Positions 5,013 through 59,452 of a stretch of DNA of 64,000 nucleotides are shown here, in pieces (positions within the stretch are counted from its first letter, which is position 1; every line of letters begins with the position of its first letter). Under the pieces are notes generated by a model. The model saw nothing but the letters and a program-made list of their open reading frames with translations, did no database searches and was not told where the DNA came from. Where the stretch lies: positions 64,686 to 128,685 of the forward strand of contig CAYVOV010000009.1 of the NCBI GenBank assembly GCA_964453525.1. Direction: 5' to 3'. A program made the translations under genes and the position numbers. The DNA comes from an uncultured Dehalococcoidales bacterium (lineage in GTDB: Bacteria; Chloroflexota; Dehalococcoidia; Dehalococcoidales; UBA2162).

Positions 5013-5789
5013 ATGATTCTTGATGAGATAGTCGAATATAACCGGACGGAGCTTGGGAATGTGAAGAGCAGTGTTCCGCTGGAAGAGCTGCGGAAGGCTA
5101 CTCTCGGGCAGCCTGAACCGCTTGACTTCGCCACAGCGCTACGTGGCGATGGTATCCGGCTGATTGCCGAGGTCAAGAAAGCCTCGCCTTCCCGGGGAGT
5201 AATCCGCGCCGATTTTAGTCCCGTGGAGATTGCCCGCACCTATGCCGCTAACGGTGCCTCCGCCATATCGGTATTAACAGAGGAAAAGTACTTTCAGGGC
5301 AGTCTTGATTATCTCAGGGATATCAGGGACGCTCTGGGAGATAATAAAATACCCCTGCTGAGGAAGGACTTTATCTTCGACTCCTACCAGGTTTACCAGG
5401 CAAGAGCTTACGGCGCTGATGCTTTACTGCTTATCGTGGCTATCCTGAGTCCTGAGAAACTGGACGAGCTGCTTTCGTTGAGTCACCGGCTCGGCATGAA
5501 GTGTCCTGTTGAAGTCCACAATGAGGCTGAGCTTGAAACTGCCCTGAAATCCGGGGCTGGTATAATCGGTATAAATAATCGGGACCTGACCACTTTTAAA
5601 GTGGATATTTCCACCACCCGGCGTTTAAGGCGCCTTATTCCCGGAGATAAAATAGTGGTCAGTGAAAGCGGTATAAAGACCCGTGACGATATTAAGAAGA
5701 TGAAAGATTGGGGTGTGGACGCCGTGCTGATTGGCGAAGCCCTGATGGCCTCAACCGATATTGCGTCTAAGATTAAGGAGTTGCTGTGA
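5013..5789 (+). CDS. trpC: indole-3-glycerol phosphate synthase
   Basis: IAEVKKASPSRG, LLRKDFI and IGINNRDL motifs; operon context. Confidence 0.95.
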   Translation: MILDEIVEYNRTELGNVKSSVPLEELRKATLGQPEPLDFATALRGDGIRLIAEVKKASPSRGVIRADFSPVEIARTYAANGASAISVLTEEKYFQGSLDYLRDIRDALGDNKIPLLRKDFIFDSYQVYQARAYGADALLLIVAILSPEKLDELLSLSHRLGMKCPVEVHNEAELETALKSGAGIIGINNRDLTTFKVDISTTRRLRRLIPGDKIVVSESGIKTRDDIKKMKDWGVDAVLIGEALMASTDIASKIKELL

Positions 5790-10142: not shown

Positions 10143-11243
10143 ATGGCACTTATTGATTTTGGCGGGACAAAAGAAGAGGTAGTTATGCGGAGCGAATTCC
10201 CGATGGAAAAAGCCCGCGAGGTTCTCAAGGACGAGACCATCGCTATCATCGGATACGGAGTACAGGGACCGGGGCAATCGCTCAACCTGAAAGACAATGG
10301 TTTCAGGGTGATAATCGGGCAGTCGAAGGATTTCCAGGAAGACTGGGACCGTGCCGTAGCCGACGGCTGGAAGGCCGGAGAAGACCTTTTTGAGATTGAG
10401 GAGGCGGTAAAACGCGGGACAGTCATCGAATTTCTTATTGCCGATGGAGCACATAAGGCGGTCTGGCCGTCAATCAAGGCGAACTTAAATCCCGGTGATG
10501 CCCTGTATTTCTCACACGGCTTTTCTATTGTCTATAAGGACCAGACCGAGGTTATACCCCCAGACAATATAGATGTGATTATGGTCGCTCCTAAAGGCTC
10601 GGGGACGTCTTTACGTCGTAATTTCCTTTCGGGTGAAGGAATTAATGCCAGTTTTGCTGTTGCTCAGGACTACACCGGCAGGGCAAGGGAGAGGTGCATA
10701 GCTTTGGGTATCGGTATTGGCTCAGGTTATCTTTTCCCTACCACGTTCGAAAAAGAAGTCTACAGTGACCTTGTCGGAGAGCGCGGTGTGCTGTTAGGAG
10801 CGCTGGCGGGAATAATGGAAGCCCAGTATGATGTTCTTCGGGAACACGGGCACAGCCCCAGCGAGGCTTTTAATGAGACGGTAGAGGAGTTAACGGAGAG
10901 TTTGATAAAACTCGTAGCGGAGAACGGGATGGACTGGATGTATGCTAACTGTTCCGCCACCGCACAGAGAGGTGCTCTTGACTGGAAGCCTAGATTCAAA
11001 GAAGCAGTAATGCCAGTGTTCAAGGAACTATATAAGAAGGTTGCTAACGGCGATGAGACCCGTCGCGTGATAGAAAGTACCGGCAGGCCTGATTACAAAG
11101 AACTGCTTGGCAAGGAACTGAAAGAGATGGGTAACTCAGAAATGTGGCATGCCGGTAAAGCAACCCGTGAGTTAAGGCCTAAGGAAGCAGCGAAGGAAAT
11201 CTCGGAATCAACCAAAGGAGTTGCCGGCAGGCAATATAGCTAG
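10143..11243 (+). CDS. ilvC: ketol-acid reductoisomerase family protein (divergent IlvC-like)
   Basis: IAIIGYGVQGPGQSLNLKDNG Rossmann motif, IDVIMVAPKGSG, TTFEKEVYSDLVGERGVL. The gene is embedded between argJ and argB. Confidence 0.7.
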   Translation: MALIDFGGTKEEVVMRSEFPMEKAREVLKDETIAIIGYGVQGPGQSLNLKDNGFRVIIGQSKDFQEDWDRAVADGWKAGEDLFEIEEAVKRGTVIEFLIADGAHKAVWPSIKANLNPGDALYFSHGFSIVYKDQTEVIPPDNIDVIMVAPKGSGTSLRRNFLSGEGINASFAVAQDYTGRARERCIALGIGIGSGYLFPTTFEKEVYSDLVGERGVLLGALAGIMEAQYDVLREHGHSPSEAFNETVEELTESLIKLVAENGMDWMYANCSATAQRGALDWKPRFKEAVMPVFKELYKKVANGDETRRVIESTGRPDYKELLGKELKEMGNSEMWHAGKATRELRPKEAAKEISESTKGVAGRQYS

Positions 11244-11255
11244 CCGTTTTACAGG

Positions 11256-12053
11256 TTGAAAGAATTGGAAAAAGTAATCGTTGTCAAGATTGGCGGAGCG
11301 ACACTCGGCAGTCATGATACCGCTATCGAAGACATAGTCGAGCTTCAGAAGCAGGGTAAGCCGGTGCTGGTCGTACATGGCGGTGGTAAGCTTATAACCG
11401 AGTGGCTAAAAAAGCAGGGTGTAGAGACAAGCTTCGTCAGAGGCGAGCGGGTAACTGACGGACCGACCCTTGAGGTTGCAACGGCGGTGCTTGCCGGACT
11501 GGTGAATAAGGATATCGTTAGTGCTATTAATGCTCTGGGTGGCAAGGCAGTCGGTATAAGCGGCGTTGACGGGGCTGTTATCCAGGGTAAGATTGCCGAA
11601 AAGGAGAAGGGCTATGTTGGCACCGTGACCAAGGTAGATACGAGCCTGCTGGAGGCTCTACTTGAGGCGGGCTTTACTCCGGTGGTCTCCCCGATTGGGC
11701 TTAATTCCGGTGACAGACCGGCTGATGAACCGCCGACGCTCAACTATAATGCCGATGTCATCGCCGGTGAAATAGCTGCTGCCATAAATGCTGAAAGGCT
11801 GGTCTTTCTGACAGATGTGGAGGGCGTCAGTGATGAATCAGGTAAACTTATTTCTTTAATGACTCCTGAAGAAGCCAATGCTTTGCTAGATTCGGGTGTT
11901 GCCTCTGGTGGAATGATTCCCAAGATTAAAGCCTGCCTTACAGCTTCATCAGTTACCCCATCGACGTGTATTATAGATGGTAGAAAATCCCACGCCCTCT
12001 TGAGCGAGATAGGGGGAAAAAGTAAGGGAACGGTTATACAACAGGGGAGTTAA
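11256..12053 (+). CDS. argB: acetylglutamate kinase
   Basis: VVKIGGA, VLVVHGGG and NYNADVIAGEIA motifs. TTG start. Confidence 0.92.
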   Translation: MKELEKVIVVKIGGATLGSHDTAIEDIVELQKQGKPVLVVHGGGKLITEWLKKQGVETSFVRGERVTDGPTLEVATAVLAGLVNKDIVSAINALGGKAVGISGVDGAVIQGKIAEKEKGYVGTVTKVDTSLLEALLEAGFTPVVSPIGLNSGDRPADEPPTLNYNADVIAGEIAAAINAERLVFLTDVEGVSDESGKLISLMTPEEANALLDSGVASGGMIPKIKACLTASSVTPSTCIIDGRKSHALLSEIGGKSKGTVIQQGS

Positions 12054-12061
12054 AGGGGGGT

Positions 12062-12208
12062 GAAGCCCCTAATCCAAGACTGATATCCCCCTTTAGAAAA
12101 GGGGGATTAAGGGGGATTTTATAAATCCCTATCGGTCTCCCCTTCGACAGGCTCAGGGTAAGCTCTTTACGAAAGGGAGAGGTTAAAAAAAGAAATTCTA
12201 AGGAATGA
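12062..12208 (+). repeat. Rep-1 composite repeat (copy 2)
   Basis: gaagcccctaatccaagactgatatccccctttagaaaagggggattaagggggattttataaatccctatcggtctccccttcgacaggctcagggtaagctctttacgaaagggagaggttaaaaa. Confidence 0.9.
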
Positions 12209-12263
12209 TATAAAGGGGATAGGGCTTAACAATAAAATACCTCAATAATCAGGAGATAAAAAA

Positions 12264-13445
12264 ATGACTGACTGGCAGGAGATGGACAGCAAATACTATA
12301 TGCAGACAATAGTACGCCACCCGGTAACACTGGTACGGGGAGAGGGCGTTCGTGTCTGGGATGACAAGGGCAAGGAGTATCTTGACTTTGTCGGCGGGCT
12401 GGCGGTCAACTGCCTCGGGCACTGCCACCCGGTAGTTACTGAAGCTCTATCCGAGCAGGCGCGTACCCTGATGCAGACTTCGCTCTGGTATTACACCGTT
12501 CCCATGCTTAAACTCGCCGAACTGCTGGTCAATAATAGCTGCATGGACAGGGTTTTTATCTGCAACAGCGGACTTGAAGCCAATGAAGGTGCCACTAAAC
12601 TCGCCCGCCGCTACGGTGCTCTGAACCTGAATGGGGCTTACGAGGTGATTACAACAAATAACTCCTTTCACGGCCGCTCTCTTGCCCTGACGGCGGCAAG
12701 CGGGCAGGTGAAGATGCACACCCCGTTCGAGCCGCTGCCGGCAGGCTTCATAAACGTGGAAAATGATGATATCGGGGCGATAAAATCTGCAACTACGGAA
12801 AAGACCTGTGCCATTATGCTGGAGCCGATACAGGCGGAAGGCGGGGTTAATGTTGCTGCCGACGATTACCTGAAAAAGGTAAGAGACTGGTGTAATAGTA
12901 AGGGTATTTTGCTCATTCTTGATGAAGTCCAGACCGGAATAGGCCGCCTGGGGACGCTATTCGGTTACCAGCTTTACGGTGTGGAACCGGATATCATGAC
13001 CCTTGCCAAGGGTCTGGGTGGCGGCATACCTATCGGGGCACTGCTGGCAAAGGAGAAGGCGGCGGTCTTCACCCTCGGTGACCATAATGCCACCTTCGGC
13101 GGTAATCCGGTTACAAGTGCAACCGCCTACGCCACGCTGAAGTATGTCCTGGACAATGATGTGGCAGGTAACGCCCGCAGAGTCGGAGAATATTTTATCG
13201 ATAAGCTGAAAAGCCTGAAAGGGAAGTACTCTTTCATCACCGATGTACGGGGGCGGGGGCTGCTGCTGGCCGTCGAGTTTGATAAGGAGATAGCCCAAGA
13301 CGTGGTAGCAGGTTGTATAGAGAACGGGCTGCTTATTAACAGGCTGAAACCCACCGCCATCCGCTTCATACCACCACTGGTCGTCACTGAAAGTGAAGTT
13401 GATGAAGGGCTGGCGATACTGGATAAGGTACTGGCGGGAATATAA
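12264..13445 (+). CDS. argD: acetylornithine aminotransferase
   Basis: Class-III aminotransferase motifs: SGLEANEGA, LILDEVQTGIGRLG, TLAKGLGGG (PLP Lys). Confidence 0.92.
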   Translation: MTDWQEMDSKYYMQTIVRHPVTLVRGEGVRVWDDKGKEYLDFVGGLAVNCLGHCHPVVTEALSEQARTLMQTSLWYYTVPMLKLAELLVNNSCMDRVFICNSGLEANEGATKLARRYGALNLNGAYEVITTNNSFHGRSLALTAASGQVKMHTPFEPLPAGFINVENDDIGAIKSATTEKTCAIMLEPIQAEGGVNVAADDYLKKVRDWCNSKGILLILDEVQTGIGRLGTLFGYQLYGVEPDIMTLAKGLGGGIPIGALLAKEKAAVFTLGDHNATFGGNPVTSATAYATLKYVLDNDVAGNARRVGEYFIDKLKSLKGKYSFITDVRGRGLLLAVEFDKEIAQDVVAGCIENGLLINRLKPTAIRFIPPLVVTESEVDEGLAILDKVLAGI

Positions 13446-50662: not shown

Positions 50663-51214
50663 ATGGCTGAGACCTATGATGTTTCAATCAAGTTAATTGG
50701 CAACCGGAATCCCTGCCATATCGGGCACAAGGTTGGTGACGAGTGGCTCTGGACGGGGAAAACACCGGCCGGTATGTGCTTCGCGGCGTTTAATTCCATT
50801 TACCCGTTTGCCCGGGTGATCAAGTACGGCGGCAGTTTCCCCTGGCAGGATGACCCGGACGTAGTTACAGCGTCATGCCCGGACAGTGAGGTTGTTAATG
50901 TATTCGAGATAAAGCGGATACCGGCAAAGGGAGAAAAGTCCGAGAACTACGATATCGAAATTAAACTGGTCGGCAAAGGTACCGAGAATCCGTGCGGTAA
51001 CGGGCACAAGATAGGAGATGAGTGGCTCCTGCAGAACAAGACACCGGAGAACCTGTGCCCCTCCGCCTACAGAAGCATTTTCAATTCGGCGCTGGTGCTG
51101 GAGTTCGGCGGTACTTTTCCCTGGCAGAGTGACCCGGATGTGACGACTGTATCATGCCCCGACCCAAATGTGGCTAACCGGTTCGAGATAAGACGAATAC
51201 CCAGAGAAAAGTAA
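50663..51214 (+). CDS. tandem-duplicated TIGR04076-like protein
   Basis: Two ~90-aa halves each carry PCxxGHKxGDEWL...GGxFPWQxDPDVxTxSCPDxxVxNxFEIxRIP. Confidence 0.7.
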   Translation: MAETYDVSIKLIGNRNPCHIGHKVGDEWLWTGKTPAGMCFAAFNSIYPFARVIKYGGSFPWQDDPDVVTASCPDSEVVNVFEIKRIPAKGEKSENYDIEIKLVGKGTENPCGNGHKIGDEWLLQNKTPENLCPSAYRSIFNSALVLEFGGTFPWQSDPDVTTVSCPDPNVANRFEIRRIPREK

Positions 51215-51226
51215 TTCTGTATGCCC

Positions 51227-51311
51227 GGAGGGGTGTCCGAGAGGCCTAAGGAGGCGGTCTTGAAAACCGCTGTCCCGCAAGGGACCGTGGGTTCGAATCC
51301 CACCCCCTCCG
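51227..51311 (+). tRNA. tRNA-Ser (anticodon UGA)
   Basis: Acceptor GGAGGGG/CCCCTCC with discriminator G. Anticodon arm GCGGT-CTTGAAA-ACCGC. Long variable arm tgtcccgcaagggaccg. T arm GTGGG-TTCGAAT-CCCAC. CCA is not encoded. Confidence 0.93.
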
Positions 51312-51418
51312 CCGTTTATGAAGCTAAAATGCCCTTGATCATAATATTAAGACCAGGGGCTTTATTGTTTTTGCTAACCAATTGCTAACGGGGATATCAT
51401 TGTAGAATATATGTTATA

Positions 51419-51448
51419 TTGGACAAATTTTGACTAAGATAATATAAT
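51419..51448 (+). promoter_or_regulatory. sigma70-like promoter candidate for the STAND gene
   Basis: TTGGAC-N18-TATAAT, ~95 nt upstream of ATG 51542. Confidence 0.35.
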
Positions 51449-51541
51449 CTGGTTTACAGAAATCGGTTACATAATAATGAAAGATGAAGATTGGACGATT
51501 GAGAAACCTATCTTCAACAGAATAACCCGGGAAGGGGAAAT

Positions 51542-54500
51542 ATGCTAAGGCTGCATTTATGTCAAATCTGGTATAACCCAGCATATTATGATGATGGTTT
51601 TGACCTTTTGGAAGAGCCAACAATTAATTTAGAGACACAGAATTCTTTGGGAAATTTAAGGGCTTTAGAACAAGTGAGATCATTGCTTGCTGAACAACGC
51701 AGTCAATATATTCAATATATTAAGGAGAAGATTCGAAATATTATTAGGTGGTGTGGAACAAGAGAGGCTGAAATAATTGTTTTTCCTGAGTACTCAGTAC
51801 CACTCGAAATACTCCAAGAAGTCAGAGAACTCGCAATGGGTGAAGGTATAAATATAGTAGCTGGTACTCATAGAGTGAGATTTACTCAATCAACTCAAGA
51901 TATTTATACTGAAATTGGAATCGATACAAGCAATTTCCCTAATGGTTCAGCATTGGCAGTAGTGATATGTTCATCTGGAGAAGTGCTTGTTTCTACTAAG
52001 AAATCGAAGTCCAAATGGGAACCAAATCTGAACGTTGATTCCGAAATTGATAACACCCATGAAATTGAATTTAAAGATTCTAAGCTGAAAGTATGTGTTG
52101 CACCATGTATTGATTCATTAAATCTCGATACTATTAGTATGTTTTGGAAAGCTGAAATAGGTGTTCCAGATTTAATAGTCTGTCCGTCTTTGTCGCCATA
52201 TACAGAAATGTTCGATAATGCAGGAGGCATATTTTCAAGCCAAGAAAAAGTATTCGCGTTGGTGAATTCTGCAGAATATGGAGGTACGGGATATAACATA
52301 CCAGAACAATGGTTGCCATATCTTTCTGGAAATTCACCTCTCCATCAAAAATTACCATCATCAGTGGAAGCTGTTTTTGAACTCGATGTGGATATAAATT
52401 CATTCTTCTTGAAGAAAGGAACTGTAATTTCAAAGCCTCCTTGTAGTCATCCAGTGATATTCCCATTTGCATATGAGAAAAACAATCAATGGCTAGAAAA
52501 CTATGGAAAAATAAAAGAGGAAGTAATTCAGTTAGTTAGTGAAAATGACTATGATGATGCTATCGACTGGATAGATAGCGCATTATCTGAACAGACTATT
52601 CCATTTCCGGATATTATTGTGGAGAAGCTAAAGGATATAAGGCACCGACGTATTCCTCTTTATTCTGGCGATATGGATGCATTGAAGGATTCTTTTGAAT
52701 TGGTGACAATTAATGATAGTACCGAGGATTCTCAGGAGTTTTATTCTAATAGAGTGGAGCGTGCTTTAGAGACACTTATTAGAGTGTTTAAAGAATCTGA
52801 TAAATCACCTTCTAAACAGTTAGTTGATACAATGAGTGCTCTGAAAGAAATCCAACTAAGATTAGGTGTGGAGAGAGCTCCTGTAAGCTCATACGGTACT
52901 CCTGAAGAGCTAGAACAGAGGCTTACTTCACTTGCATATTCGGCATCAGAATCGACAGTAGCATCATTTCAAAATAGAGGTCCGAGGTTGGATCAGCTAA
53001 GAGAAATTATTTCTCAAGGATCAGAAAGAGTTATTGTATTAACTGGTATGCCTGGTATAGGTAAAACAGACTTAGTTAAAAATTTCTTTATAAAAGTGTT
53101 CACAGATTGGCAACCTATATGGATTAATGTAGCAGAAGGTAGCACATTATCGCGTATTGTTGCTCAAATAGGTTATTCTCTTGGGGTAAAAATGGATGCG
53201 GATTCTCTTGGTAGTTCTACAGATAAAGTGTTTAGATCAAATCTTCAAAAAATATTTAGAATTCTGTTTGGTAATCAACGGATAGCATTAGTCATTGATG
53301 ACTTAAGAGATGTGAGAAGTAGTAGTCGTGACTATAAGCATCTACAAGCTTTTATAGAAGAAGCAGTTCAGGTAAAACAATATACTGGGAGTCGGATTTT
53401 TCTGATTAGTAGTATTGCAGCTCCTCCTCTTTGGATGCAACAAGCTGGTATATCTAGGATTCATATTCGAGGGCTTGAAGAAATGTATGTTAAAAGGGTG
53501 TTGGAATATCAGCTGAGATTGGCCGGTATGATATCAGACGAAACGGTGCCTGATATTCCTCAAGCTTTGCTTGACGTAATAGCAGGGCATCCTCTAACAG
53601 CAAAGATAGCAGCGATAGCAAGCGAGTCACGTGGACTTCAGTCATTGACTGAGGAAGTAGCAATGTCTGAACTAACTACAACATTAGTTAATGCTTTGCT
53701 GCCTCAAATAAGTTTGTCCTCTGAAGAATCAAAGGTTGTTAATTTAATTTCACTACTTCGACTGCCTATAGAGGTCGATCTAATAAAAGAAATAATAGAT
53801 GCAAAGAATTTATACACATTAGCTCAACGGGCAGTAATTGACTTGGATGGAAATTATTTTACGGTTCATCCTTTGATTAGAAAGTATTTCTATGATCAGA
53901 TTGTGCCTGATGATTTAAAAAATTTGCACAAGCAGGCGGCTTCTTATTATAAAAAAATAGTGCAATGGGACCGTCTGAGCAACCCAAGTAACCTTGATGC
54001 TGCTTTTGAATTGGTACATCATTTGGCTCTTGCTGGAGATTTTAGAGAATTATATGACCTGCGGAATCTAATTTATGAGGAAATATATCCGGCAGCGAAA
54101 ATTTTATACGATCAAAAACAGTATGATAATGCTCTTTCAATTTTTATTAAGTTAACAGAAATTAGACCTCATGATTTTAGAGTATGGGCTTATGTAGGGC
54201 GGTGTTATGCCCGTAAAGGTCAATGGAATGATTGTGATGAATCGTTTGAGAGGGCGATAGAATACGCAGAATTATCGAAAGAACCAACTTGGTGGTTATA
54301 CAGAGACTGGGCTCATATTCATGCGAGGTATGGACATCGTGAACGGGCTCAAAATTTATTAACGAACGCTAAAAATACAGGTGGAAGCAGCGATCCGTCA
54401 TGTCTAGCATGTCAAGCAGTCATATACTGGAGAAACAATGATAAAGAGAGAGCAGAACAAACTTTCGAAGCTGTATTGAAAATTAATGACAAGCATGCAT

Positions 54501-54649
54501 ATACACTTTTTATGTATAGTCAGTTTCTAGATGAAAAAGGTGATAAAGATTATGCAAATAGACTAAGATCTCGTTTGGAGGATATAGAGAGTGAGATGAT
54601 GCAGCCTGAACCATACGATATTGATGTTGAGATTTATGAGGATGAGTGA
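51542..54649 (+). CDS. CN-hydrolase (nitrilase-fold) - NB-ARC STAND ATPase - TPR fusion protein
   Basis: aa 1-300: IIVFPEYS (E83), KKSKSKWE, VAPCIDS (C189), in the order and context of the Glu-Lys-Cys triad. aa ~495-720: GMPGIGKT (K508), LVIDDL (D586/D587), RIFLISS, GHPLTAKI, VHPLIRKYF. aa ~780-1010: TPR-like repeats. Confidence 0.85.
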   Translation: MLRLHLCQIWYNPAYYDDGFDLLEEPTINLETQNSLGNLRALEQVRSLLAEQRSQYIQYIKEKIRNIIRWCGTREAEIIVFPEYSVPLEILQEVRELAMGEGINIVAGTHRVRFTQSTQDIYTEIGIDTSNFPNGSALAVVICSSGEVLVSTKKSKSKWEPNLNVDSEIDNTHEIEFKDSKLKVCVAPCIDSLNLDTISMFWKAEIGVPDLIVCPSLSPYTEMFDNAGGIFSSQEKVFALVNSAEYGGTGYNIPEQWLPYLSGNSPLHQKLPSSVEAVFELDVDINSFFLKKGTVISKPPCSHPVIFPFAYEKNNQWLENYGKIKEEVIQLVSENDYDDAIDWIDSALSEQTIPFPDIIVEKLKDIRHRRIPLYSGDMDALKDSFELVTINDSTEDSQEFYSNRVERALETLIRVFKESDKSPSKQLVDTMSALKEIQLRLGVERAPVSSYGTPEELEQRLTSLAYSASESTVASFQNRGPRLDQLREIISQGSERVIVLTGMPGIGKTDLVKNFFIKVFTDWQPIWINVAEGSTLSRIVAQIGYSLGVKMDADSLGSSTDKVFRSNLQKIFRILFGNQRIALVIDDLRDVRSSSRDYKHLQAFIEEAVQVKQYTGSRIFLISSIAAPPLWMQQAGISRIHIRGLEEMYVKRVLEYQLRLAGMISDETVPDIPQALLDVIAGHPLTAKIAAIASESRGLQSLTEEVAMSELTTTLVNALLPQISLSSEESKVVNLISLLRLPIEVDLIKEIIDAKNLYTLAQRAVIDLDGNYFTVHPLIRKYFYDQIVPDDLKNLHKQAASYYKKIVQWDRLSNPSNLDAAFELVHHLALAGDFRELYDLRNLIYEEIYPAAKILYDQKQYDNALSIFIKLTEIRPHDFRVWAYVGRCYARKGQWNDCDESFERAIEYAELSKEPTWWLYRDWAHIHARYGHRERAQNLLTNAKNTGGSSDPSCLACQAVIYWRNNDKERAEQTFEAVLKINDKHAYTLFMYSQFLDEKGDKDYANRLRSRLEDIESEMMQPEPYDIDVEIYEDE

Positions 54650-54650
54650 G

Positions 54651-54839
54651 TTAATCTACAGTTTTAGTTTTTTCAAATATGAATTCATCAAAACGAATAG
54701 CTGCGGCTTCTTGTAATCCTAGAGCAACATGTGAATAGGTATCTAAAGTTATAGCGATAGTCGAATGTCCTAATCTTTTCTGGACAATTTTCGGGTGAAT
54801 ACCTTGTTTCAACATTAGAGAAGCATGAGTGTGACGTGC
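54651..54839 (-). pseudogene. tyrosine recombinase/integrase, C-terminal fragment only
   Basis: The reverse-strand translation is ARHTHASLMLKQGIHPKIVQKRLGHSTIAITLDTYSHVALGLQEAAAIRFDEFIFEKTKTVD*. This is box II (RHTxAS...LGHS...Y.H). An in-frame TAG lies two codons upstream (54845-54843) and the frame has no start codon. Confidence 0.85.
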
Positions 54840-54893
54840 ACACTATAATTAATAAATTATACTATTTATAAAGTAAATAATTAATATTATTAA

Positions 54894-56639: not shown

Positions 56640-57149
56640 ATGCTAATAGGCTTGATTTCAGATACCCATATTCCCGACCATGCGAAGCGACTCCCCGATG
56701 AACTGAAAGGAGCTTTTCGCGGCGTGGACTTGATACTTCACGGTGGAGATATCTATTCCGTTTCCGTACTGAATGAACTGGAAACGATAGCTCCGGTGCT
56801 GGCAGCTCAGGGCGACGACGATACCAGTTTTGCCGCCAGTGACAATCGTGTGAAACTAAAGCATATTATCAGCATTGACGGTGTTACAATCTGGCTGATG
56901 CATGAGAAACCCAGGTCCATGCCACGCGTCTCCAAAGAAATCCCCTGGCTGGATGACCCCCCCGATGCCATCGTCTTTGGTCATACCCATGAGGCTACTG
57001 TGGAAAATCACCAGGGTATTCTTCACGTTAATCCGGGCAGCCCGACCTTTCCTCATTATAACCTCAGGCTCGGCACGGTAGGCTTGATGACAGTCGAGTC
57101 TGGTAAAGTCGAAGTTAAAATCGTTCAACTCAAATCGAGACCTGCCTGA
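56640..57149 (+). CDS. metallophosphoesterase (YfcE-like)
   Basis: ISDTHIP, HGGDI and GHTH motifs. Confidence 0.88.
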   Translation: MLIGLISDTHIPDHAKRLPDELKGAFRGVDLILHGGDIYSVSVLNELETIAPVLAAQGDDDTSFAASDNRVKLKHIISIDGVTIWLMHEKPRSMPRVSKEIPWLDDPPDAIVFGHTHEATVENHQGILHVNPGSPTFPHYNLRLGTVGLMTVESGKVEVKIVQLKSRPA

Positions 57150-58639: not shown

Positions 58640-59452
58640 TCATCCCGGCATTTCTGCCGAAATGTCCCGGAGCCTTTTCATCGCTTCCTCGGTTCCTATT
58701 TTGCCTTGCTTTAATTCTTCGTTCGTAATCTCCACTATTTCAAGAAATTTCTCAAGGTTTTTATACTGGTCTTGGGTAATGGGTAATGAGAGCAATGGCT
58801 CAACAACTTCACGGTAAAGCTCAAGTTCGATTCTTTCAGAAGTGTCTAAATCCGCACCCTGAGTTTTTTCCAAGGTTGCTAAATCAGCCTCCAGAGTTTT
58901 TTTAGCTTCTTCTATACTTTGCCTTATCTTTTCCCCGGTTTCTTCAGCCTCGGCAGCTTTCCTTGTTTCTTCGGCTTCGGCAGCTTTCCTGGCTTTCTCG
59001 GCTTCGGCAGCTTTCCTGGCTTCTTCGGCCTCACGTCTGGCTCTCTCTTTAGCTTCCTTTTCAGCCTGTTTCTTTGCCTGCTTTTCAGCTTCGGCAGCTT
59101 TCCTGGCTTCTTCAGCTTCTTCGGCTCCAACAGCGTCAGTTGCTTCTTCAGCCTTACCAGTTTCCTCGGCCTGGGCGGTTGACCCTGCTTCATCTGACGC
59201 CTCTTTGGTCTTTTCCCAGGCTGCTATATCAGCCGCCAGAGCTTTCTTAGCCTCTTCTATCTCCCTGGCGGCTTTTTCAATGGCATCAATCCTGGCCTGC
59301 CTTTCGGCTTCAGCAGCCTTCTTGCTTTCAGCAGCCTTCCTGCTTTCAACAACCCTCCGGCGTCCCCGTAAGCCACGCCCCCGCAACGGGTAATTACACC
59401 ACTGGCAGTTATCACCGCTGGTTATCTGTCCGCAATTAGGACATCTCGGCAT
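58640..59452 (-). CDS. zinc-ribbon protein with long Ala/Glu/Lys-rich repeat region
   Basis: MPRCPNCGQITSGDNCQWCNYPL is followed by reiterated EEARKAAEAE(K/E) units. The matching nucleotide tandem repeats lie at ~58960-59120. Confidence 0.65.
   Translation of the reverse strand: MPRCPNCGQITSGDNCQWCNYPLRGRGLRGRRRVVESRKAAESKKAAEAERQARIDAIEKAAREIEEAKKALAADIAAWEKTKEASDEAGSTAQAEETGKAEEATDAVGAEEAEEARKAAEAEKQAKKQAEKEAKERARREAEEARKAAEAEKARKAAEAEETRKAAEAEETGEKIRQSIEEAKKTLEADLATLEKTQGADLDTSERIELELYREVVEPLLSLPITQDQYKNLEKFLEIVEITNEELKQGKIGTEEAMKRLRDISAEMPG

Follow-up and report, generated by a model that had tools for sequence, protein, structure and literature searches.

A predicted nitrilase domain related to those of defence reverse transcriptases heads a family of NB-ARC-type STAND proteins

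In the genome of an uncultured Dehalococcoidales bacterium (Chloroflexota, lineage UBA2162), one gene was found to encode a predicted nitrilase-superfamily (carbon-nitrogen hydrolase, CN-hydrolase) domain, a STAND NTPase core and a tetratricopeptide repeat (TPR) array in a single polypeptide. The gene is an intact open reading frame (ORF) at positions 51542–54649 (+ strand) of a stretch of 64,000 nucleotides (assembly GCA_964453525.1, contig CAYVOV010000009.1, positions 64,686 to 128,685), which is called the window here. Its product of 1035 amino acids (aa), read from an ATG start, is probably a self-contained sensor of the NLR-like (STAND) kind, acting in immunity or conflict, with a nitrilase executioner of the lineage of class 3 defence reverse transcriptases (DRTs). 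A probability of roughly 0.6 is given to this reading, in which the immune role is what we infer from the combined features described below.

A preliminary description of this DNA had proposed the three-part protein and quoted a series of short motifs. The ORF aligns colinearly with full-length homologues from residue 1 to about residue 1030, and every quoted motif is present in it: FPEYS (E83), VSTKKSKSKWEP (K153...E160), PCID (C189) and CPSLSP in the N-terminal part, and GMPGIGKT (K508), LVIDDL (D586/D587), GHPL (G682/P684) and VHPLIR (H776) in the STAND core. Their conservation is far beyond chance. All three proposed parts, the CN-hydrolase fold with ordered Glu/Lys/Cys residues, the AP-ATPase/NB-ARC core and the C-terminal repeats, were recovered by the analyses described in the next two sections.

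The predicted nitrilase domain and its relatives

The N-terminal domain (aa 1–315; 51542–52486, + strand) is the predicted effector. The Pfam family CN_hydrolase (PF00795) has no match in the window protein and matches 8 of 31 relatives, with the best e-value 2.2 × 10−4. A PDB search with the single sequence gave just an insignificant formamidase match at FPEYS. Two AlphaFold2 models were built. In the first, based on an alignment of 12 sequences, the core had a predicted local distance difference test score (pLDDT) of 75–94, and 43 consecutive top matches belonged to the nitrilase superfamily. The second covered residues 1–322 and used an alignment of 31 diverse relatives; its pLDDT was 90.7 and its predicted template modeling score (pTM) 0.91. 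Foldseek with the second model returned 145 PDB matches at e-values ≤1 × 10−3, the top 50 of which were all nitrilase-superfamily proteins with probability 1.0. The best template modeling (TM) score was 0.69, to PH0642 (1j31), and the root-mean-square deviation to Nit2 was 3.9 Å (Foldseek). The models assign aa 1 to about 315 to the nitrilase/CN-hydrolase fold, a four-layer alpha-beta-beta-alpha sandwich.

The predicted catalytic residues are E83, K153, E160 and C189 (codons 51788–51790, 51998–52000, 52019–52021 and 52106–52108, + strand). P82, E83, H110, K153, C189, N242 and G247 are invariant in 62 of the 62 full-length relatives, and E160 and E276 are each found in 60 of them (97%). Counting was extended to all retrieved relatives that cover the catalytic columns, whatever their architecture (140 proteins). 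The Glu/Lys/Cys set of E83, K153 and C189 is present in 140/140, H110 in 138/140, and E160 in 126/140 with Asp in 10 more, while N242 and E276 are nearly invariant. Conservation of E83, K153 and C189 together with near-invariant E160, N242 and E276 is a pattern expected only of an active enzyme. E160 is located at K153 +7, which matches the canonical context RKxHLxxxE. The counterparts of C189 in alignments are C1116, the catalytic Cys of DRT1, and the Cys of the formamidase motif CICHD, which is likewise catalytic; E83 aligns with the Glu of FPE in formamidase and cyanide hydratase. Escherichia coli YafV, which served for register only (hhalign probability 2%), has YDK and VCYD in register with K153 and C189. 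K158, which lies within a string quoted in the preliminary description, was rejected as the catalytic Lys, as it is found in only 35 of 62 relatives and K153 is invariant instead.

Canonical nitrilases (Nit2/omega-amidase, PH0642, the Nesterenkonia amidase, the formamidase AmiF, vanin-1 and beta-ureidopropionase) have the same sandwich fold, with TM scores of 0.6–0.69, and the same Glu-Lys-Glu-Cys set in the same order and contexts, with only 10–15% identity to the window protein. The family differs from these enzymes by invariant residues peculiar to it (H110 in AG[ST]H, and PEYSxP) and by the fusion to a STAND protein in place of a free-standing enzyme.

The closest relatives were found among the DRTs. 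The best PDB match of the family profile was DRT1 (9yfd; e-value 5 × 10−8), and the next was formamidase (e-value 0.068). Among PADLOC models, RT_UG5-nitrilase matches 29 of 31 members, RTasNitrilase 28/31, RT_UG29 19/31 and Drt1a 12/31, and the CARF_nitrilase model matches 2/31. The matches of the DRT models are limited to the nitrilase part of the protein. These similarities place the nitrilase domain, as judged by sequence, in the same lineage as the nitrilases of class 3 DRTs (DRT1, UG5 and UG29). Nitrilases of class 3 reverse transcriptases (RTs) constitute a clade separate from metabolic nitrilases (PMC9226505), and the UG5 system of RT-nitrilase plus TM (transmembrane) has been validated (PMC9122126). 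DRT1 works by abortive infection and needs its nitrilase, as the substitution C1116A abolishes phage defence (PMC13275509). The nitrilase domains are the structural core of the DRT1 filament, and nitrilase activity, that of DRT1 included, depends on oligomeric assembly (PMC13275509).

The likeness of the window protein to DRT1/UG1 (9yfd), RT_UG5-nitrilase, UG29 and the RT-associated nitrilase consists of the nitrilase-fold domain and the aligned catalytic Cys (C189/C1116). In the window protein as in these class 3 UG/Abi RTs, the domain probably serves as the oligomerisation-dependent toxic output of abortive infection. In contrast to the DRTs, it has no reverse transcriptase, alpha-repeat domain or DNA-adduct regulation, its nitrilase domain is N-terminal whereas that of DRT1 is C-terminal, and it appears to be controlled by a STAND NTPase and a TPR sensor. 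Pfam detected no RT domain in the window protein, and there is no RT gene in the inserted DNA islet that carries the gene. The window protein is thus classified outside the DRTs.

STAND core, TPR sensor and family architectures

A helical linker (aa 316–470; 52487–52951, + strand), delimited by the secondary structure of the first model and by per-domain identity, connects the nitrilase domain to the nucleotide-binding oligomerisation domain (NOD; aa 471–790; 52952–53911, + strand). The NOD includes a nucleotide-binding domain (NBD), a helical domain (HD) and a winged-helix domain (WHD). Pfam NB-ARC matches residues 485–590 with 31.9 bits, above its cut-off of 23.5, and Pfam NACHT stays under its cut-off of 26.7 with 16.3 bits. 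Upstream of the P-loop, F476-x-x-R479 belongs to an hhGRExE-like motif (F476-x-[DNG]-R479-x-x-E) in which R479 is conserved in 62/62 full-length relatives. In Walker A (G502–T509), G502 and G507 are 100% conserved in the 62 relatives, and K508 (codon 53063–53065) in 61 of them. Walker B is LVIDDL, with D586 in 48/62 and D587 in 46/62. R618 follows, then G682-H-P-L685 (G682 in 61/62, P684 in 58/62) and, in the WHD, H776-P-L-I-R780 (H776 in 46/62, R780 in 39/62). The closest solved STAND protein by sequence is PH0952 of Pyrococcus horikoshii (6mfv; e-value 2.3 × 10−4), and the alignment spans NBD, HD and WHD including GHPL and VHxxxR. The core is accordingly predicted to be of the NB-ARC/AP-ATPase type.

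The C-terminal region (aa 791–1035; 53912–54646, + strand), which ends in an acidic tail, is predicted to be a TPR array from matches of Pfam TPR_19, TPR_2, TPR_8 and TPR_14 within residues 850–994. Identity among relatives is 28% in the nitrilase domain, 22–25% in the NOD, 23–26% in the TPR region and 14–15% in the linker, which is the least conserved part.

PH0952 has the same combination of STAND core and C-terminal TPR sensor, without an enzymatic effector domain and without a known immune role. Avs/AVAST proteins (Avs1-5, Avs7 and others) likewise combine an effector at the N-terminus, a STAND NOD and a TPR-like sensor at the C-terminus in one polypeptide, and are also single-gene and horizontally moving. 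The window protein differs from them in its effector, a nitrilase where they have a nuclease, protease, Sir2 or TIR domain, and in its much shorter sensor of about 245 aa. Its sequence places it outside the Avs families of PADLOC. Bacterial NACHT (bNACHT) proteins are also NLR-like and include a CN-hydrolase as presumed effector; "CN-hydrolase" appears among bacterial NACHT domains in the legend of Fig. 2 of Kibby et al. (bioRxiv 10.1101/2022.07.19.500537), where it is listed without discussion or test. The NTPase of the window protein differs from bNACHT in having the R479 hhGRExE-like motif and GxP and in passing NB-ARC while failing NACHT, and it falls outside the NACHT type.

The preliminary description had considered an amidase/nitrilase to be outside the characterised effector classes. 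This was overstated, because the DRT1 nitrilase has been characterised (C1116A), PADLOC holds nitrilase models, and a CN-hydrolase is already catalogued on bacterial NACHT proteins by Kibby et al. It had also proposed a PADLOC search as a check of novelty. No PADLOC model covers the whole protein, which agrees with novelty of the architecture, whereas the DRT-nitrilase models cover its nitrilase part. Apart from the listing by Kibby et al., a nitrilase-STAND fusion is undescribed in the literature searched, a scope outside which are Gao et al. 2022 (Avs, Science) and the supplements of the 2026 Nature STAND survey, which could list the family.

A word-indexed search retrieved only 11 relatives, all short or fragmented. 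An exhaustive profile search revealed at least 748 clusters (50% identity) at e-values ≤1 × 10−3, and 98 at e-values ≤1 × 10−30. About 60 of the best 150 matches are proteins of 930–1140 aa whose alignment with the window protein extends over the full length, at 22–45% identity. The closest full-length homologue is P0013 (45% identity). The members are publicly labelled "hypothetical protein", "tetratricopeptide repeat protein", "AAA family ATPase" or "WD-repeat protein", and nitrilase is mentioned in none of these labels. Family genes were found in at least six phyla in a patchy distribution, including Marinimicrobia, Nitrospirota, Acidobacteriota, Desulfobacterota, Lachnospiraceae and Myxococcota. 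This distribution was obtained by scanning species representatives with alignment A1; alignment A2 was too divergent for locus scanning.

The nitrilase domain is also found on other chassis. It is combined with a nucleotide cyclase, AAA_16 and MalT-type TPR, with 14 WD40 repeats (2313 aa, Sorangium), or with pentapeptide repeats and WD40, and it heads architectures with a HerA/TrwB-type ATPase, a receiver or an IF-2B-like domain. Giant WD40/pentapeptide arrays in Myxococcota are typical of conflict systems (PMC7159879). The modular use of the N-terminal domain on many chassis suggests, on sequence grounds, an effector-like role. Three proteins without a P-loop, P0123 and P0133 (765–782 aa) and P0095 (606 aa), combine the N-terminal domain with a C-terminal IF-2B-like domain or response-regulator receiver. 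The IF-2B-like family includes sugar-phosphate isomerases and eIF2B. These architectures may hint at the substrate (phosphoribosyl compounds?) or at other modes of regulation.

The islet at tRNA-Ser and the neighbourhoods of family genes

The gene is located in an AT-rich inserted islet of about 3.6 kb (51314–54893; about 37% GC, against about 50% in the flanks), which was delimited by the composition profile and by the empty or different site in relatives. The GC content of the gene itself is 36.8%, and that of the remainder of the window 49.9%. On its left the islet borders on tRNA-Ser(tga) (51227–51313, + strand; ARAGORN; Rfam RF00005, 54.8 bits), which is the landmark for integration and ends 229 nt before the start of the ORF. 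The sole other coding trace in the islet is an ORF of 54 aa (54651–54815, − strand), which matches positions 140–169 of the 172 positions of Pfam Phage_integrase with the e-value 3 × 10−4. The frame upstream of it still reads RHTHAS and is interrupted by stops, and the ORF is thus regarded as the C-terminal remnant, about 54 aa long, of a decayed tyrosine recombinase (integrase).

The corresponding site was compared among related metagenome contigs. In the contig L023, whose flanking proteins are 61–69% identical to those of the window, the order is a 183-aa gene, an identical tRNA-Ser, about 500 bp, SBP_bac_5 and a CoA ligase, which represents an empty site. The same site is also empty in L035. 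The empty site in a relative indicates that the islet is an insertion. In L022 (Ga0315543_1000185), other cargo is present at 10306–12525 after the same tRNA-Ser(tga), with 31–39% GC against about 51%. It comprises a GIY-YIG gene and the gene of a P-loop protein of 535 aa, which has a weak Pfam nSTAND_NTPase5 match (e-value 2 × 10−6, below the cut-off). The tRNA-Ser is identical in L022 and L023, and the similarity ends at its 3′ end. An independent Logan assembly (SRR14802574) of the window region breaks within the tRNA. The empty sites in L023 and L035, together with the other cargo in L022, point to the tRNA-Ser as a hotspot of variable integration, at which STAND genes accumulate. The claim that the gene is the sole intact one of an AT-rich islet at a tRNA gene stands.

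At the islet ends, neither an att-type direct repeat of the tRNA 3′ end nor terminal inverted repeats were found. A search for dif-like sites gave only matches with three mismatches in AT-rich DNA, at about chance level; two of the three matches are at the islet ends (51404–51419 and 54875–54890). ORFs of at least 200 aa are on the + strand upstream of the islet, with the exception of antisense ORFs overlapping longer + ones, and on the − strand downstream, with the switch at about 54.7 kb. The cumulative GC skew has its maximum at 54–55 kb. The strand switch and the skew peak resemble a replication terminus, or they may reflect operon layout only.

Directly 3′ of the tRNA-Ser, at 51321–51370, a terminator-like structure is present, a hairpin with the stem GCCC..GGGGC and a T-run behind it. 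It is on the islet side, beyond the end of the similarity to the empty-site contig. A promoter-like sequence, TGGACA-17-TATAAT (51420–51448, + strand; about 94 nt 5′ of the ATG), was recognized by consensus scan with 11/12 consensus positions; it is a consensus match only, and such matches are not above chance regionwide. The purine-rich GGAAGGGG immediately 5′ of the ATG at 51542 is ribosome-binding-site-like.

Several other genes of the window were recorded. The 183-aa protein encoded just 5′ of the tRNA (50663–51214, + strand) is a tandem duplication of a unit of about 90 aa with conserved Cys/His residues, YD[VI]xIKL[IV]G...NPCxxGHK[VI]GDEWL...FPWQxDPDV. No Pfam family matches it, and the duplication is also observed in relatives from many metagenome contigs. 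A Metallophos_2 phosphoesterase gene (56640–57149, + strand) is located between SBP_bac_5 and the CoA ligase and is missing in the otherwise syntenic L023. A weak homologue of this phosphoesterase (23% identity, e-value 9 × 10−7) is encoded 2.4 kb 3′ of the family gene at the locus L005, which is probably a coincidence. A 270-aa ORF (58640–59452, − strand) has a zinc-ribbon-like N-terminus (CPNCG...CQWC) followed by low-complexity AEAEKxARKAAEAE repeats, and no Pfam family is assigned to it in the Logan annotation.

Several family genes elsewhere are also far richer in AT than their hosts, with a GC content of 34% against 50% at L005, 38% against 57% at L009 and 38% against 47% at L001. No neighbour gene is conserved across loci. 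A multi-gene system was considered and rejected for lack of a partner gene conserved across loci, and the gene is regarded as a single-gene module for the same reason. At the locus L020 (GCA_000753565.1, JRER01000764.1), a Macro-domain gene (5065–5625) is located about 350 nt 5′ of the gene for P0013 on the same strand, and it is not found at other loci. Macro domains act on ADP-ribose derivatives. This gene may be a housekeeping bystander or a hint at NAD-related chemistry. At two loci from ENA metagenome assemblies, L001 (1041–4153) and L002 (3256–7922), the family gene is split into 3–6 consecutive ORFs corresponding to N-terminal domain, AAA_16 and TPR pieces. These split genes may be pseudogenes or may reflect assembly frameshift errors. 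L002 includes a TIR_2 fragment, the N-terminal domain, a Guanylate_cyc ORF, AAA_16 and TPR, and in L001 the split gene is followed by a tRNA-Arg(tct) after about 200 nt.

Proposed mechanism, alternatives and meaning

The window protein is most likely a single-gene abortive-infection sensor, for which we infer activation by oligomerisation. In the resting state the protein would be an inactive monomer, kept so by the TPR arm and by the NOD with bound ADP. A trigger, probably a phage-derived protein or peptide, would bind the TPR sensor; a small ligand is conceivable too, given the shortness of the sensor (about 245 aa). Binding would lift the autoinhibition, and nucleotide exchange at Walker A/B (K508, D586/D587) would drive oligomerisation of the NOD. 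The NOD oligomers would gather the N-terminal nitrilase domains and turn on the E83-K153-E160-C189 site. Because nitrilase-superfamily enzymes need homo-oligomeric assembly, STAND oligomerisation would be expected to activate the nitrilase (PMC13275509). C189-dependent hydrolysis of a C–N (amide or related) bond in an essential cellular molecule would then result in growth arrest or abortive infection. The proposed trigger, toxic outcome and activation by oligomerisation follow the induced-proximity logic of NLR-like proteins.

Several observations weigh against an immune sensor. The TPR sensor is short, is not hypervariable and diverges no faster than the NOD. The fusions to receiver and IF-2B-like domains are compatible with a metabolite- or signal-regulated enzyme. 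The 72 neighbour proteins at 10 loci are mostly housekeeping proteins without shared synteny; a type IIG restriction-modification enzyme is adjacent at one of the 10 loci, and TIR and cyclase-STAND fragments are found at one. Enrichment in defence islands is not borne out by these loci. The typical defence-island setting claimed in the preliminary description holds only weakly for the family, most homologues of which are alone among housekeeping genes. No copies of the family were found on plasmids or phages by tblastn, or on viral contigs by the scan. PADLOC has no full-length model, and its models for Avs1-5 yield only Avs4, with the e-value 1.3 × 10−3 over 50 P-loop residues.

Thus, a ligand-regulated signalling or metabolic enzyme has to be considered, in which the TPR-STAND part senses an endogenous metabolite or stress, as in MalT, PH0952 and STAND-cyclases, and switches an amidase without killing. 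This explanation draws on the short, non-hypervariable sensor and on the fusions to receiver and IF-2B domains, and the non-immune PH0952 as closest solved STAND protein, the fusion to a nucleotide cyclase and the mostly housekeeping neighbours are also in its favour. It is nevertheless considered unlikely. The nitrilase domain is closer to the defence nitrilases of DRTs than to metabolic ones, and no conserved operon partner or synteny points to a pathway. The family has a patchy distribution. The gene is richer in AT than its host and occupies a variable tRNA hotspot that carries another STAND gene in a relative, and the giant WD40/pentapeptide fusions in Myxococcota are typical of conflict systems (PMC7159879). 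The same hotspot could instead be taken to indicate an addiction or conflict module that serves the islet itself, or one aimed at plasmids, other mobile elements or competing bacteria, with a trigger other than phage. The gene is the only cargo of a tRNA-integrated islet beside an integrase remnant, it has its own promoter-like signal, and the cargo of the site differs between genomes. Such a module is improbable, as the gene has stayed intact beside a decayed integrase and purifying selection on the catalytic residues is strong in at least 140 chromosomal relatives, which together argue for a benefit to the host; an antitoxin-like partner gene is not conserved either. The least probable explanation, to which very little weight is given, is a catalytically dead nitrilase-like domain serving as a structural scaffold for oligomerisation or as an adaptor recruiting another effector. 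It would fit the filament core formed by the nitrilase domains of DRT1 (PMC13275509) and the insignificant score of Pfam CN_hydrolase for the window protein, but not the presence of E83, K153 and C189 in every relative and the near-invariance of E160, N242 and E276, nor the requirement of DRT1 for its catalytic Cys (PMC13275509), and no partner effector gene is conserved.

With the immune sensor as the preferred reading, the architecture as such is not surprising: by analogy, the protein would work like a single-gene sensor of the Avs/bNACHT type with a warhead of the DRT1 type. The effector class itself is already known. What is new is a large, unannotated NB-ARC-type family that appears to reuse the DRT nitrilase effector. 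With at least 748 clusters (50% identity) the family is sizeable, and the nitrilase domain at the head of its members goes unrecognised in public annotation. The locus is also a clean example of a tRNA hotspot with alternative STAND genes in related genomes.

The reuse of the DRT nitrilase warhead on NLR-like STAND switches and on other sensor chassis joins two defence worlds that have been described separately, and strengthens the view of this nitrilase lineage as a dedicated immune effector. It is possible, if somewhat doubtful, that the STAND-family nitrilases and those of class 3 DRTs constitute one immune effector class, which kills or arrests the infected cell by C–N hydrolysis in an essential amide-bearing metabolite or macromolecule. 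The substrate may then be NAD+, a glutamine or asparagine derivative, pantetheine/CoA, or a protein or tRNA modification. If this is true, C–N hydrolysis would be a chemistry not yet described in any immune system. The substrate of the DRT1-type nitrilase is explicitly left open in PMC13275509, and the one-gene version controlled by an ATP switch offers a simpler route to it. As a single polypeptide that can perhaps be switched by STAND gain-of-function mutations, it could be a tractable system to reveal this substrate.

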